Sequence record: OM258170 | DNA from: Escherichia phage ZL19 | Strand: one strand, 5' to 3' | DNA length: 47,884 nt | Translations under genes and position numbers: made by a program | Part shown: positions 349 through 47,884 of the stretch, one piece after another | Layout: every line of letters begins with the position of its first letter | Position numbering within the stretch: the stretch's first letter is position 1 | The notes under the pieces: model-generated | Databases searched by the model: none | What the model saw: the letters and a program-made list of their open reading frames with translations, nothing else | Told to the model about the DNA's origin: nothing

Positions 349-377
349 TTGACTACATGTGTAAGTCGGGATATGAT
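349..377 (+). promoter_or_regulatory. sigma70-like promoter TTGACT-17-TATGAT
   Basis: TTGACT 349-354, 17-nt spacer, TATGAT 372-377, ~30 nt upstream of first gene. Confidence 0.6.
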
Positions 378-408
378 GGACTCAACTTAAACGAGAGGAG
401 TGATAGAA

Positions 409-5422: not shown

Positions 5423-5500
5423 GCTCTGCTAGCTCAACAGGATAGCAGCAACGACCTTCTAAGTCGTAGGTTACTGGTTCGAATCCAGTGCGGAGCGCCA
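5423..5500 (+). tRNA. tRNA-Arg (anticodon UCU), CCA encoded
   Basis: 7-bp acceptor stem GCTCTGC/GCGGAGC, anticodon stem ACGAC/GTCGT with loop CTTCTAA, T-arm ACTGG-TTCGAAT-CCAGT, GG in D-loop; D-arm atypical (3-bp stem, long loop). Confidence 0.7.
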
Positions 5501-28866: not shown

Positions 28867-28888
28867 AAGTGTTTAGCAATTAGTGCTA
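28846..28888 (-). promoter_or_regulatory. palindrome-type promoter module (minus strand)
   Basis: Motif TAGCACTAATTGCTA on minus strand, -10 TATTAT 37 bp downstream, leader CCATCGAAACGAAAC. Confidence 0.5.
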
Positions 28889-30052: not shown

Positions 30053-30095
30053 AATATACCCAAAGATAGCTAGTTGTCTTTAGCAATTGGTGCTA
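30053..30095 (-). promoter_or_regulatory. palindrome-type promoter module (minus strand) for Rha gene
   Basis: Motif TAGCACCAATTGCTA on minus strand, -10 TATATT at 30053-30058. Confidence 0.5.
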
Positions 30096-35557: not shown

Positions 35558-35602
35558 TAGCACGAATTGCTAAAGTGGATTGTAGCATCTTTCAGGTATA
35601 AA
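35558..35602 (+). promoter_or_regulatory. palindrome-type module in plus orientation, function ambiguous
   Basis: TAGCACGAATTGCTA 35558-35572 with TATAAA at 35597-35602; no plus-strand gene downstream; 25 nt upstream of tailspike ATG on minus strand. Confidence 0.35.
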
Positions 35603-35623
35603 AAAAACCTCCCGAAGGAGGTT
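35598..35623 (-). terminator. intrinsic terminator of primase gene
   Basis: AACCTCC-CGAA-GGAGGTT hairpin followed by T8 on minus strand. Confidence 0.65.
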
Positions 35624-36596
35624 AGCTGTTCAATAAATCACTTGCCTTATATATCTTCTTCCTGATTCCGCTCTTGAATGAGTATTCATCATTTGGTATT
35701 ACCACATCAAGATTCCTCTCATCAGCAACGCAAAGCAATTCCCTATCAAGATAGCAAGCAACTCTTAACTTGAAATCTTTGAGTGCGTAAGCAACCATCT
35801 CCATGTTGTAGCTAGAGTGGCAAACAAGTACACATCGGTTGCCAGTAGCAAGATGAACACGAATACCATCAATCCAATTATCCACAAGATAAGCGTACTC
35901 ATCACTTTTAAAGGAACCAATAACAGCAACTGACTGGCGTGTGTAATATTTTGCAGCATAACTAACACCTCCCTCCTCGTTAATAAACATTACATTGCAC
36001 ATTTCTTCTGATATACCGTCACTATAAACCATAAAGCACGGTATTGCGTGTATTATTTCACCGGATTTTGTCCTGCCAACATCAAAACCAAACTCGCTAT
36101 AGATACCCTCGTATGTACTGAGCGGGGTTGATTCTACTCTTTCAGTCCTCTCCATTATCTCTAAGCATCTCTCGTGGTCAATTTGAGCGCCCATTTTGTA
36201 GAGCTTGGTTCTTGATGCTTGCTTGTTTGCCTTGTTAACAACCTCAACAGGGATAAGGCTTAACCACCCACCGAGAACATCGATACATTCACTAAATGAC
36301 TCACCTCGCATTTTCTGGACCCAAACAACACCATCTCCTGAACCGCATTGGTTGCAGATAATTCCACCATCACCATCTTCGCTAACCTTATTAGTCCATC
36401 TTGCGCGATCGTTGCCGCCGCAATAAATGCACGGCTGATGCTTTTTGGTCTGGAAAAACTTAGGGTCAGCGCCGCAGATGTTGATAAGTGCTTTATCCCA
36501 CAGGCCGCGCATTCTTGGTATAACTTCTTTCTTATCGTAGTGCATATCAATCTGTCTCTTAACAAATAAAAAAAGGATGTACCGATTATGGCACAT
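35622..36596 (-). CDS. DNA primase (zinc-ribbon + TOPRIM-like)
   Basis: CIYCGG...CNQCGSGDG zinc-ribbon motif; start could be M18 at 36545. Confidence 0.55.
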   Translation of the reverse strand: MCHNRYILFLFVKRQIDMHYDKKEVIPRMRGLWDKALINICGADPKFFQTKKHQPCIYCGGNDRARWTNKVSEDGDGGIICNQCGSGDGVVWVQKMRGESFSECIDVLGGWLSLIPVEVVNKANKQASRTKLYKMGAQIDHERCLEIMERTERVESTPLSTYEGIYSEFGFDVGRTKSGEIIHAIPCFMVYSDGISEEMCNVMFINEEGGVSYAAKYYTRQSVAVIGSFKSDEYAYLVDNWIDGIRVHLATGNRCVLVCHSSYNMEMVAYALKDFKLRVACYLDRELLCVADERNLDVVIPNDEYSFKSGIRKKIYKASDLLNS

Positions 36597-43280: not shown

Positions 43281-43645
43281 TAATGTGCGTAGCTTTATCT
43301 GGATGTTCAGCAACATCCGCGCTGACCGGATTAATTGGCAGCAAGCCAGAGATTAGCGCCCAGGCTGGCGCTGAGAACAATAAGGTTGGTGTTGGGTTAA
43401 CGAACAAGGTTGACTCAAGTAACTCAAGTGAAGCCACGGTTAAAGATTCTAAGGTTGGGTCACTGGATAGCTCGAGCGGGAAAAAGACTGCTGACAACTC
43501 GATTAAGGCCTCAACAATCACTGCTGAAAAGATTGAGATCACAAATAACGAATCATCAGCGCTTCCGTGGGTCGGAACAGGAGCAATGGGGTTGCTGGTT
43601 CTTATTCTCATGGCATTAATCTTAAGACGTAAAAAAGCCCCCTAA
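43256..43645 (+). CDS. unimolecular spanin (T1 gp11-like)
   Basis: N-terminal lipoprotein signal (LSGC) plus C-terminal TM followed by RRKK; overlaps endolysin 3' end. Confidence 0.7.
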   Translation: MLKWIAALVMCVALSGCSATSALTGLIGSKPEISAQAGAENNKVGVGLTNKVDSSNSSEATVKDSKVGSLDSSSGKKTADNSIKASTITAEKIEITNNESSALPWVGTGAMGLLVLILMALILRRKKAP

Positions 43646-43653
43646 TGGGGGCT
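43636..43653. terminator. bidirectional terminator
   Basis: AGCCCCC-TAAT-GGGGGCT hairpin between convergent genes. Confidence 0.5.
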
Positions 43654-47088: not shown

Positions 47089-47286
47089 TCAGAAGTTACC
47101 AAGTACCAAAGACATTTGCTTGCGTGTCTTGCACTCAGACAGCTTAGCGAACAAAGCCTTAGCTTCAGGGTCATCTGTCTGCTTTACACAGAATGCGCAA
47201 CTTTCTGCGATATCCTTCACACGGCGGCGAGCATCCTTAATTTCCATTGCGATTTCGTTTAAAGTGTTCTTGATTGCGATATCCAT
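47089..47286 (-). CDS. hypothetical protein (65 aa)
   Basis: ATG with GAGGG RBS; first gene of right-arm minus operon. Confidence 0.45.
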   Translation of the reverse strand: MDIAIKNTLNEIAMEIKDARRRVKDIAESCAFCVKQTDDPEAKALFAKLSECKTRKQMSLVLGNF

Positions 47287-47411
47287 TTTATTCCCTCGTC
47301 TCGTTTAAGTTGTTAGAGGTTCGCTTTGATGCCATCGCTGCTTGGGTGGTTATCCTGTTCCTTCAGGAGGCCGCTCGGCTCTTTACTTCCCACCCCGTTC
47401 TCTATGTATTA

Positions 47412-47454
47412 ACTATACTTCTTTTCTTTACTGCTGTTTTAACATTTCGTGCTA
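47412..47454 (-). promoter_or_regulatory. palindrome-type promoter module (minus strand, variant)
   Basis: Motif TAGCACGAAATGTTA on minus strand at 47440-47454, -10 TATAGT at 47412-47417. Confidence 0.45.
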
Positions 47455-47652
47455 TTTAATAACTTTCCACTTCATTTACTTCTTTCGAGGAACCCGGTCA
47501 GACTTTGCTGCCGGAGAAGGTGTCTGGGAGTTTACCTATTCGGAAGTGACTCAACGTGCCCTTTCTCAACACTCGCCAGCATTTTTCATCTGGACGATTC
47601 GACCTCTGGGAGGCAGCTACTTGGCGTTCGCTTCACTGCTTCCTTGAGGTAC
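47455..47652 (-). ncRNA. candidate non-coding transcript between two promoter modules
   Basis: ~200 nt downstream of minus-strand promoter 47653-47695 without an RBS-preceded ORF; speculative. Confidence 0.25.
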
Positions 47653-47695
47653 ATATTACCAGTTTCTTGATTTATGTCTTTAGCAAAAAGTGCTA
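47653..47695 (-). promoter_or_regulatory. palindrome-type promoter module (minus strand)
   Basis: Motif TAGCACTTTTTGCTA on minus strand at 47681-47695, -10 TAATAT at 47653-47658. Confidence 0.45.
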
Positions 47696-47715
47696 TTCGT
47701 CAGATTTATGGATTG

Positions 47716-47796
47716 TTGCAGATATTGCAATGATTTAGATGACTATTGCACATATAGCAATATTTCTTCATATGCAATGATGTTTTTGATTGTTGC
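47716..47796. repeat. cluster of inverted and direct repeats (TTGCA-N5-TGCAA, ATTGC-N7-GCAAT, TGCAATGAT x2, GATTGTTGC x2)
   Basis: Palindromes at 47716-47730 and 47745-47761 plus direct repeats, non-coding, near window end. Confidence 0.6.
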
Positions 47797-47884
47797 GAAA
47801 AGTGAAATGAATTGGGGAGCGAGTGAATGAAAGATTGATGGACTACCATACAAGTTGATTTTGATTCTGGGTGAACCATTTTTG

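Follow-up and report, generated by a model that had tools for sequence, protein, structure and literature searches.

A candidate structured RNA module between two predicted leftward promoters of Escherichia phage ZL19

What occupies the roughly 200 nt between two promoter-like modules at the right end of Escherichia phage ZL19 (sequence record OM258170)? The window analyzed here is the whole 47,884-nt stretch, which is a complete genome, circularly permuted, from a T1-type siphovirus that resembles Rtp (Drexlerviridae). A preliminary description, made from the sequence alone, placed two promoter modules on the minus strand, found no translatable open reading frame (ORF) between them (47455-47652), and suggested a small RNA or a long regulated 5′ untranslated region (UTR). 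We find both 43-nt promoter-like modules at these positions (P1, 47653-47695; P2, 47412-47454; minus strand), as well as the first gene that had been named downstream, with its ATG at 47286 and the ribosome-binding site GAGGGAATAAA. The suggestion itself is supported by a core shared with other phages, three covarying hairpins, the absence of a conserved frame, and co-orientation with an upstream promoter. On the best explanation, the region (47646-47493, minus strand) carries the Rtp lineage's version of a structured non-coding RNA module that spans ~110 nt and has not been described before. The evidence is compatible with a separate small RNA and with a 5′ UTR, and cannot yet decide between the two.

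A core shared by three groups of coliphages

A sensitive BLAST search with 47400-47700 gave matches in 12 phage records among 50,697. These run the full length in Rtp (two records), BUCT-XGG-1, and PH1062, and cover the middle ~90 nt, with 83-87% match, in non-coding DNA of the Seuratviruses WildeMaa/Bas23, SLUR75, and SA80RD and in the Vequintavirinae UPEC06, LTH01, A7_1, A5-4, and A73. Carriers besides the window are 11 phages from three unrelated groups: the Rtp/Nouzilly lineage of Drexlerviridae, Seuratvirus, and Vequintavirinae. Reciprocal searches bear out the core matches in the other families. Similarity to Rtp itself is broad, at ~90% over the right-end 885 nt and 95% over 47400-47700.

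What the window shares with the Seuratvirus and Vequintavirinae carriers is an 86-nt core (47515-47600, minus strand; GAAUCGUCC...GACACCUUCU). Between families the core is 83-93% identical, compared with 49-64% for the 100 nt on each side under the same global aligner, and BLAST alignments stop at the core without extending into the flanks. A whole-genome blastn comparison of the window with WildeMaa returned this 95-nt segment as its sole match. Covariance model R1 scores the core at 123 bits and finds a single copy in the window. In all carriers, the core is co-oriented with a promoter, 40-100 nt downstream of it, and upstream of the operon's first gene. Four stretches that are single-stranded in our model, GAUGAAAAA, AGUGUUGAGA, AAGGGCACGUUGAGU, and AGACACCUUCU, are invariant in 10 of 10 sequences.

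The core is preceded in the window by a 5′ leader segment (47609-47643, minus strand), which contains the motif AAGCAGUGAAG (47641-47631) and an imperfect hairpin fold, GGAAGCAG...CUGCCUCC. This motif has two exact matches in the window, one in each of the two leaders that follow P1 and P2. At the other end, an A-rich unstructured tail (47455-47492, minus strand) reaches the P2 repeat and is conserved only within the Drexlerviridae carriers.

Searches for known RNAs and for further copies were negative. A gathering-threshold Rfam scan of the window returned a tRNA only, and a scan of the region and four carriers against Rfam 15 at E ≤ 10 returned nothing on the core. ARAGORN called only a tRNA-Arg (anticodon TCT; 5423-5500, plus strand), which lies amid small rightward early genes; the element is not a tRNA. 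Four IMG/VR pattern scans recovered Rtp itself or chance matches only, a loose-pattern metagenome scan gave, among the matches listed, chance matches only and none that was confirmed, and nhmmer and model R1 confirmed no additional locus. In the literature, we found no description of this RNA, nor any transcript map of Drexlerviridae or T1. A promoter-proximal structured RNA in a phage early leader is a kind of element already known; this sequence and structure family, and its distribution over three groups, are not found in Rfam 15 or the literature searched.

Hairpins, strand, and coding potential

Covariance analysis across related phages, which the preliminary description had named as a check, yields three hairpins with compensatory changes. 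The structure was modeled with RNAalifold and completed by hand on a 10-sequence alignment (A1), giving 23 pairs and 230 pair cells. We find that 95.7% of these cells are paired, compared with 38-54% when partners are slid by one to three columns. Hairpin P1h (47576-47593, minus strand) has a CCAG/CUGG stem and an invariant 10-nt loop, AUGAAAAAUG. Its pair 22:35 changes from A-U to G-C in four of the 10 sequences, which converts the stem to CCGG/CCGG; the switch distinguishes the window from Rtp and also Vequintavirinae from Seuratvirus.

Hairpin P3 (47528-47552, minus strand) consists of a GAGU/ACUC outer stem, a 5-bp inner stem, and a GAA-N-A pentaloop. The loop is GAAUA in the window and GAACA or GAAAA in other copies, with position 4 alone variable (U/C/A). 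Two P3 pairs show compensatory changes, 68:82 (G-C to C-G) and 71:79 (C-G to U-A), and the inner stem is weaker in the window, with two mismatches. Hairpin P4 (47493-47515, minus strand) lies directly 3′ of the core and reads UCCGG-CAG-[CAAAGU]-CUG-A-CCGGG, with 8 bp and one bulge; no U-tract follows it. Its 5+3-bp, one-bulge architecture is kept in Drexlerviridae and Seuratvirus with all three inner pairs replaced (CAG/CUG, UCC/GGA, CUU/AAG). Seuratvirus copies have UCC/GGA and CUU/AAG inner pairs with UGCG or UACG loops, the Vequintavirinae P4 has 4+3 bp, and every pair is standard. Compensatory changes thus affect three pairs in A1, plus at least four more double changes in P4.

G-U pairs fill 24 of the 230 cells and would be A-C mismatches if read on the other strand; the structure therefore belongs to the promoter-oriented strand. 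We regard the element as very probably a selected RNA structure. A DNA-level role is the least probable of the alternatives that we weighed. The element would then act as single-stranded DNA hairpins (a primosome or primase ‘ssi’ signal, or a primer site of an origin) or as a protein-binding site. Its ~1-kb gene-free surroundings are consistent with this, with a (TA)n/(ATT)n tract, AT-rich and iteron-like repeats, and many short inverted repeats, and ssi signals are strand-specific, host-factor-dependent, and mobile. Tandem promoters beside AT-rich DNA also recall the primary origin of T7. However, the Vequintavirinae copy sits in an ordinary early gene array rather than in a control region, the element always lies just downstream of a promoter and co-oriented with it, and its G-U pairs and GNRA-like and UNCG loops are features of RNA. 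An origin is also unlikely to be confined to a handful of close relatives.

The observation on coding holds: no ORF between P1 and P2 is conserved on either strand. The sense strand of 47455-47652 holds ORFs of 22 and 24 aa only. The ATG of the former lies inside the P1 −10 hexamer, and the latter, which begins with GTG, meets a stop in A7_1 and loses its frame to a single inserted nucleotide in WildeMaa/SLUR75. On the plus strand, ORFs of 101, 73, and 60 aa, which the preliminary description had discounted, are rearranged or broken in PH1062 and BUCT-XGG-1; although annotated in some records, such ORFs are rearranged among the four Drexlerviridae carriers. Across 10 sequences, coding by any of the six frames was rejected because no frame is conserved.

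A 7-codon mini-ORF (47566-47589, minus strand; AUG AAA AAU GCU GGC GAG UGU UGA) was retained as a minor rival. Its start codon lies in the P1h loop, and it would encode a leader peptide or serve as a ribosome-loading site, its translation shielding or controlling the leader. It is present in 10 of 10 sequences, in a region that is itself nearly invariant, as AUG AAA AA(U/G) GC(U/C) GGC (G/A)AG UGU UGA, and third codon positions take two of its three substitutions. A weak Shine-Dalgarno (SD)-like GAGG stands 13 nt upstream of the AUG in the window; with GGAAGGUG in Seuratvirus, the SD-like sequences lie 10-13 nt upstream. The invariant loop AUGAAAAA is a favorable initiation context. Set against this, Vequintavirinae have no SD sequence (UUUUCGAAUCGUCCAG), and two of the seven residues change (N/K and E/K), with MKNAGEC in the window and MKKAGKC in the other families. 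The sole synonymous change (GCU/GCC) is matched in every case by a change at a base beyond the ORF, so that the P1h stem is kept, and conservation runs ~70 nt past the stop codon, where all frames break. We consider it very improbable that this mini-ORF is the functional unit.

Promoter modules and cassette behavior

P1 (47653-47695, TAGCACTTTTTGCTAAAGACATAAATCAAGAAACTGGTAATAT) comprises a 21-nt T1-type repeat, TAGCACTTTTTGCTAAA, a −35-like AAGACA, a 16-nt spacer, and a −10-like TAATAT, and its predicted +1 is at ~47646. P2 (47412-47454, TAGCACGAAATGTTAAAACAGCAGTAAAGAAAAGAAGTATAGT) is a second repeat/−10 module of the same build (TAGCACGAAATGTTAAA ... TATAGT). The two are 241 nt apart, with 193 nt between the modules, and both match the 21-nt repeat consensus aaATAGCACnnnTTGnTAAAA with no mismatch. 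This repeat has been described from T1 and TLS, and its function was an open question for its describers (PMC11447400). Its TAGCAC-N5-G(C/T)TAAA family has ~19 copies in the window, always co-oriented with genes; at up to two mismatches there are 41 matches, compared with 15.6 ± 4.2 in shuffled sequences. Examples of the form aaaTAGCACnnnTTGCTAAA are at 1476, 2914, 3695, 4640, 8215, 16236, 31747, 39593, and 40276 on the plus strand and at 28888, 30095, 45740, 46508, 47454, and 47695 on the minus strand.

A TAnnnT hexamer stands exactly 36-37 nt past the repeat start in 15 of 16 intergenic copies, P1 and P2 included. The repeat would thus be the upstream half of the phage's main promoter class, a reading that has strong in silico support. 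The −10 hexamer is 25-46 nt from the start codon in 11 of the 16 modules, and the usual leader after a repeat module is of the type AUCGAAACGAGAGGAG. The distance is 125 nt for P2 and 366 nt for P1; with a leader of this length, P1 is the clearest module that points into untranslated sequence. Tandem promoters with no ORF between them are in themselves a weak argument for an RNA gene, since T7 has the same arrangement.

Other repeat modules invite comparison. The copy at 35558 (plus strand; region 35558-35640) is followed by a CCUCC-CGAA-GGAGG hairpin without a nearby ORF and may specify another short non-coding transcript, and the copy at 30095 (minus strand) has an atypically long leader of ~104 nt. 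A sigma-54 reading of TGGCAC/TAGCAC-N-TTGC was rejected, as the GG-to-GC spacing is 8-9 nt and not 10 (by eye). Early promoters of Seuratvirus carry (T)AGCAC/GGCAC/GCCAC-GTTTGG upstream of a TAGACA −35 (loci L004 2346-2400, L142 1055-1105, and L143 1063-1112). This upstream element resembles the TAGCAC repeat of Drexlerviridae, again with a spacing unlike that of a −24/−12 sigma-54 promoter, and an upstream promoter element may be common to the two families.

The RNA module behaves as a cassette: the nearest relatives without it have an empty site, or else a 49-aa gene at its position. Relative to phage DTL, in which the P1-homologous module stands directly ahead of the first gene with a leader of ~30 nt, the Rtp/Nouzilly lineage has gained the RNA, P2, and a 120-nt leader. 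In Rtp and the window, the insertion also includes the first leftward gene (47089-47286, minus strand), a 65-aa rtp75 homologue without a match among prokaryotic virus orthologous groups (PHROGs). The unusually long leader of P2, ~120 nt (47287-47411, minus strand), contains the second motif AAGCAGCGAUG at 47343-47333 and is confined to the four Drexlerviridae carriers. Seurat and VogelGryff have the same promoter and first ~10 transcribed nt as the Seuratvirus carriers, followed by a 49-aa gene exactly where the carriers have ~270 nt of RNA. In rV5, the order is terminator, one promoter, gene; in the Vequintavirinae carriers it is terminator, P1, RNA, P2 (a second copy of the same promoter type), gene.

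Repeated promoter sequences bound the indel in two families, and the downstream gene has its own promoter in two of the three, as expected if the RNA holds a gene slot of its own. The module looks like a cassette complete in itself, passed horizontally among virulent coliphages that are otherwise unrelated, and it was probably spread by recombination at repeated promoter and leader sequences. Genes downstream of the carriers' elements are mutually unrelated, belonging to different PHROGs or to none. A tblastn search with all window ORFs against the WildeMaa genome found only distant HNH, helicase, and tail matches and no shared protein of high identity. Since neither a downstream gene nor such a protein is shared, any constant partner must be the host. 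The element also opens another approach to the T1-type 21-nt repeats, since in this genome they border a mobile cassette.

Could the region instead be ordinary furniture of an early leader, an untranslated spacer whose hairpins only stabilize mRNA or serve as RNase sites, whose identity between families reflects recent leader recombination, and which has no function of its own? In T7, three host promoters stand in tandem at spacings of 124-128 nt without an intervening ORF, the 5′ motif of the element recurs promiscuously in promoter-proximal leaders, that of a microvirus included, and the minimum free energy (MFE) of the region is unexceptional. Promoter-flanked cassettes also shuffle readily in T4-type phages, where they are known as PeSLs (PMC2839356). 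Against this, long single strands are invariant over three families while the stems covary, which points to sequence-specific recognition beyond that of a mere stabilizing hairpin. Furthermore, the insertion in Vequintavirinae is a promoter plus this RNA and nothing else, and in Seuratvirus the element replaced a protein-coding gene. We regard an ordinary leader as decidedly unlikely.

The 5′ motif has a distribution of its own. A 19-nt form, GAAGCAG(Y)G(R)UGCAAAGUA / GAAGCAG(Y)G(R)UGCAAAGUAG, lies 10-17 nt past the −10 hexamer of sigma-70-type promoters in Vequintavirinae, Seuratvirus, Grimontviridae, SP6-like podoviruses, and an alpha3-like microvirus (L005 2418, L004 ~2418, L013 1076, L012 1504, L135/L136, and L209 271, the last in the C-D intergenic region of microvirus NC29). 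Degenerate copies (AAGCAGYGAWG) occur in both window leaders. This motif is apparently an RNA module in its own right, promoter-proximal and exchanged widely, and such exchange extends even between double-stranded DNA phages and a microvirus. In Grimontviridae, the same 5′ motif opens a ~2.2-kb genome-end region without an annotated ORF (SE131, L013 1-2245; pSal-SNUABM-01, L012 1-1585), which may be a large non-coding transcript; a gathering-threshold Rfam scan of the Salmonella phage SE131 locus gave no match.

The right end of the window runs on into its left end, as comparison with DTL shows; the window ends are contiguous and the genome is thus circularly permuted. A ~1-kb gene-free control region parts the first leftward gene from the first rightward gene (ATG at 409). 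Positions 1-408 and 47696-47884 join into a ~1-kb gene-free region that contains, besides a (TA)n/(ATT)n tract (95-145), numerous TTACRC/GTAAG inverted repeats and may be an origin or pac region. Just upstream of P1, three ~31-nt direct repeats (47706-47813; spacing 30 and 47 nt) with TTGCAAT/ATTGCAA palindromes, conserved in DTL too, look like operators for a regulator of divergent early promoters. A near-consensus sigma-70 promoter (TTGACT-17-TATGAT; 349-377, plus strand) precedes the first rightward gene. The two divergent first genes have a common leader end before their start codons, CAACTTAAACGAGA(C/G)GAG (385-408, plus strand; 47287-47312, minus strand). Farther left, a strong bidirectional terminator hairpin (43636-43653; AGCCCCCATTAGGGGGCT, with T-runs on both strands) closes the block of small leftward early genes.

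Possible roles and relation to known systems

We tentatively prefer, at somewhat less than an even chance, a structured, host-directed, protein-binding RNA over antitermination of the put/nut type. Host RNA polymerase would transcribe the module from P1 as the first product of the leftward early arm, with invariant purine-rich single strands linking hairpins P1h, P3, and P4. Early in infection the RNA would build up, whether as the 5′ portion of the early transcript or as a species of ~150 nt left after trimming to P4. Its invariant loops and junctions would then bind an E. coli factor, and the RNA would serve as a decoy or sponge of the anti-defense or host-takeover type, without antisense pairing or an encoded peptide. 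On the structure model, P4 would be a fit place for a 3′-protective hairpin, being stable, GC-rich, provided with UNCG-type loops in two families, and situated exactly where similarity ends; the A-rich sequence that follows makes a ~150-nt processing product plausible.

Comparison with host sequences points the same way. The core has no match of 22 nt or longer in 5,426 E. coli genomes or in plasmids; blastn was empty at E ≤ 10 against the genomes and at E ≤ 1 against the plasmids, and a pattern scan of GTDB genomes did not find it. This lack of long host complementarity favors protein binding rather than antisense, with short seeds still compatible. Host mimicry and long antisense pairing were rejected on the absence of any E. 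coli genome, plasmid, or GTDB match.

Several results weigh against the decoy reading or the RNA module on which it builds. The folding stability of the 193 nt is not above that of shuffled sequences (z = +0.68), and MFE z-scores across folds range from −1.2 to +1.5, with none significant on either strand, so the structural case rests on covariation and not on energy. With 10 distinct sequences from three clades, covariation statistics are low in power. Two proposed helices (columns 12-17/41-46 and 47-54/94-99) show no variation at all, and the closing helix is ambiguous, with three alternatives (AGAAAGG, GUGUU, and the 5′ flank) for its 3′ strand ACACCUUCU, none of which varies. P1 and P2, although well supported as promoters, are predicted only; a generic sigma-70 scan of the window called neither, and they score 8/12 by eye. 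In no family is the element followed by an intrinsic terminator (hairpin plus U-tract); a stand-alone small RNA gene would usually have one, and its absence fits a cis-acting leader. In Seuratvirus, the element is physically the 5′ UTR of the first gene. Finally, precedents for RNA-only phage decoys are, to our knowledge, few.

The most serious competitor, itself rather unlikely, is a cis-acting leader for processive antitermination or Rho resistance, comparable to lambda nut or the put sites of HK022. Folding as it emerges from a polymerase that set out from P1, the RNA would, by itself or together with host Nus factors, let that polymerase pass Rho and the terminators throughout the early operon; promoter and RNA together would form a transferable booster of transcription. 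In every carrier the element is promoter-proximal and co-oriented with the downstream operon, with no terminator after it, so read-through is built in. No shared phage protein would be needed, as for put. P3, with its 5-bp G/C-rich stem and its pentaloop variable at position 4 alone, shows the signature of the GNRA-like boxB loop of lambda (GAAAA/GAAGA), in which base 4 is flipped out. In addition, other phages that depend on host RNA polymerase have a canonical boxA in their early leaders, namely T7, SP6, and the SP6-like contig L136 (its leader opens with the same 5′ motif), and UPEC06 has CGCUCUUA directly 3′ of P3.

Other observations speak against antitermination. Because P2 is downstream of the element in Drexlerviridae and Vequintavirinae, transcripts from P2 would not contain it, whereas the boxA of T7 follows all three promoters. 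Non-carrier relatives have the same operons without the element. There is no strong minus-strand intrinsic terminator within 47286-43653, and none downstream on the UPEC06 plus strand. Nor is there conservation of the boxA-like octamer, which is CUCCCAGA in the window and CUCCAAGA in Seuratvirus. Model R1 was also empty in HK022 24-32 kb, the segment expected to hold putL and putR, although the put sites were not located directly.

As to boxA itself, it was rejected as a conserved feature, since the exact octamer occurs in UPEC06 alone. There, the lambda-type sequence (L005 2571-2578) is 3′ of the P3 stem and overlaps it, and sister phages have CGCUCCUA; it is probably a chance occurrence. Canonical boxA of the form (C/U)GCUCUUUAACAA was seen in the early leaders of SP6 (L141, ~655), T7 (L140, ~512), and the IMG/VR contig L136, which has it twice (5247 and 4260, minus strand), one copy being in the leader that opens with the 19-nt motif.

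A broader reading, itself rather doubtful, is that of an RNA-only ‘moron’: a portable structured RNA, traded between virulent coliphage families, that is made first and neutralizes or hijacks one host component. It could be a decoy for a defense or RNA-binding protein, or a factor-independent modifier of E. coli RNA polymerase, in either case with no protein partner. If so, the element would represent a new class of RNA. Anti-defense and host-takeover functions are being discovered among the accessory early genes of virulent phages, nearly all known ones being proteins. Here, a non-coding RNA appears to act like an accessory gene: it occupies the first slot of the early region, stands in place of a protein gene in Seuratvirus, and has spread across three unrelated phage families with only the E. 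coli host in common. The idea is directly testable in Rtp and the BASEL phage Bas23 (WildeMaa), with the non-carrier Bas25 (VogelGryff) as a natural control.

Among known systems, the element would by analogy work most like a put/nut-type leader or an RNA-only accessory moron, and it is a member of neither family. An Hfq-type small RNA gene likewise has a promoter (predicted here), but it differs from the element, which has no Rho-independent terminator or U-tail and no extended antisense match to E. coli genomes or plasmids. The A1/A2/A3 leader of T7 also combines tandem host RNA polymerase promoters with untranslated, purine-rich spacers of more than 100 nt before the first early gene. However, T7 has boxA and an RNase III site after its last promoter, whereas the window leader has no boxA and folds without a long duplex; the conserved RNA of the window lies between promoters, and the spacers of T7 are not known to form a structured module that phages exchange.

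The PeSL cassettes of T4-type phages (Arbiol et al. 2010, PMC2839356) offer a parallel in genome organization. Repeated early-promoter modules flank variable cassettes there too and bound insertions, deletions, and replacements, which gives a plausible route of horizontal transfer. Their stem-loops are terminators and their cargo is protein genes, whereas the cargo here is a non-coding RNA without a terminator.

Like the nut/boxA leaders of lambda, the element is a promoter-proximal untranslated early RNA that heads an early operon, and its P3 has a boxB-like 5-bp stem and GAA(A/C/U)A loop, with two compensatory stem pairs and, in the window, two mismatches. It differs in having no conserved boxA and none 5′ of P3, in its much greater size (~110 nt with three hairpins) and its place upstream of a second promoter, and in that no N-like protein is common to its carriers (no systematic search for N was made). 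Put RNAs are known from temperate lambdoid phages. The putL and putR sites of HK022 show no sequence or structure similarity to the element (R1 at E ≤ 10 was empty in the segment searched, in which put sites were not located directly). They are nonetheless alike in being multi-hairpin RNAs of ~70-110 nt just downstream of an early promoter, and the element could, by analogy, work without a phage protein and so be portable between phages that share only a host. RNA-only counter-defense provides the other model. Although the element bears no resemblance to ToxI repeats, CRISPR repeats, or tRNAs (ARAGORN and Rfam scans gave nothing on it), it may, purely by analogy, be comparable to the pseudo-ToxI of PhiTE, RNA anti-CRISPRs, and phage tRNAs that oppose anticodon nucleases, all of which are small accessory non-coding RNAs that are sporadic in distribution, early, and directed at the host with no phage protein as partner.

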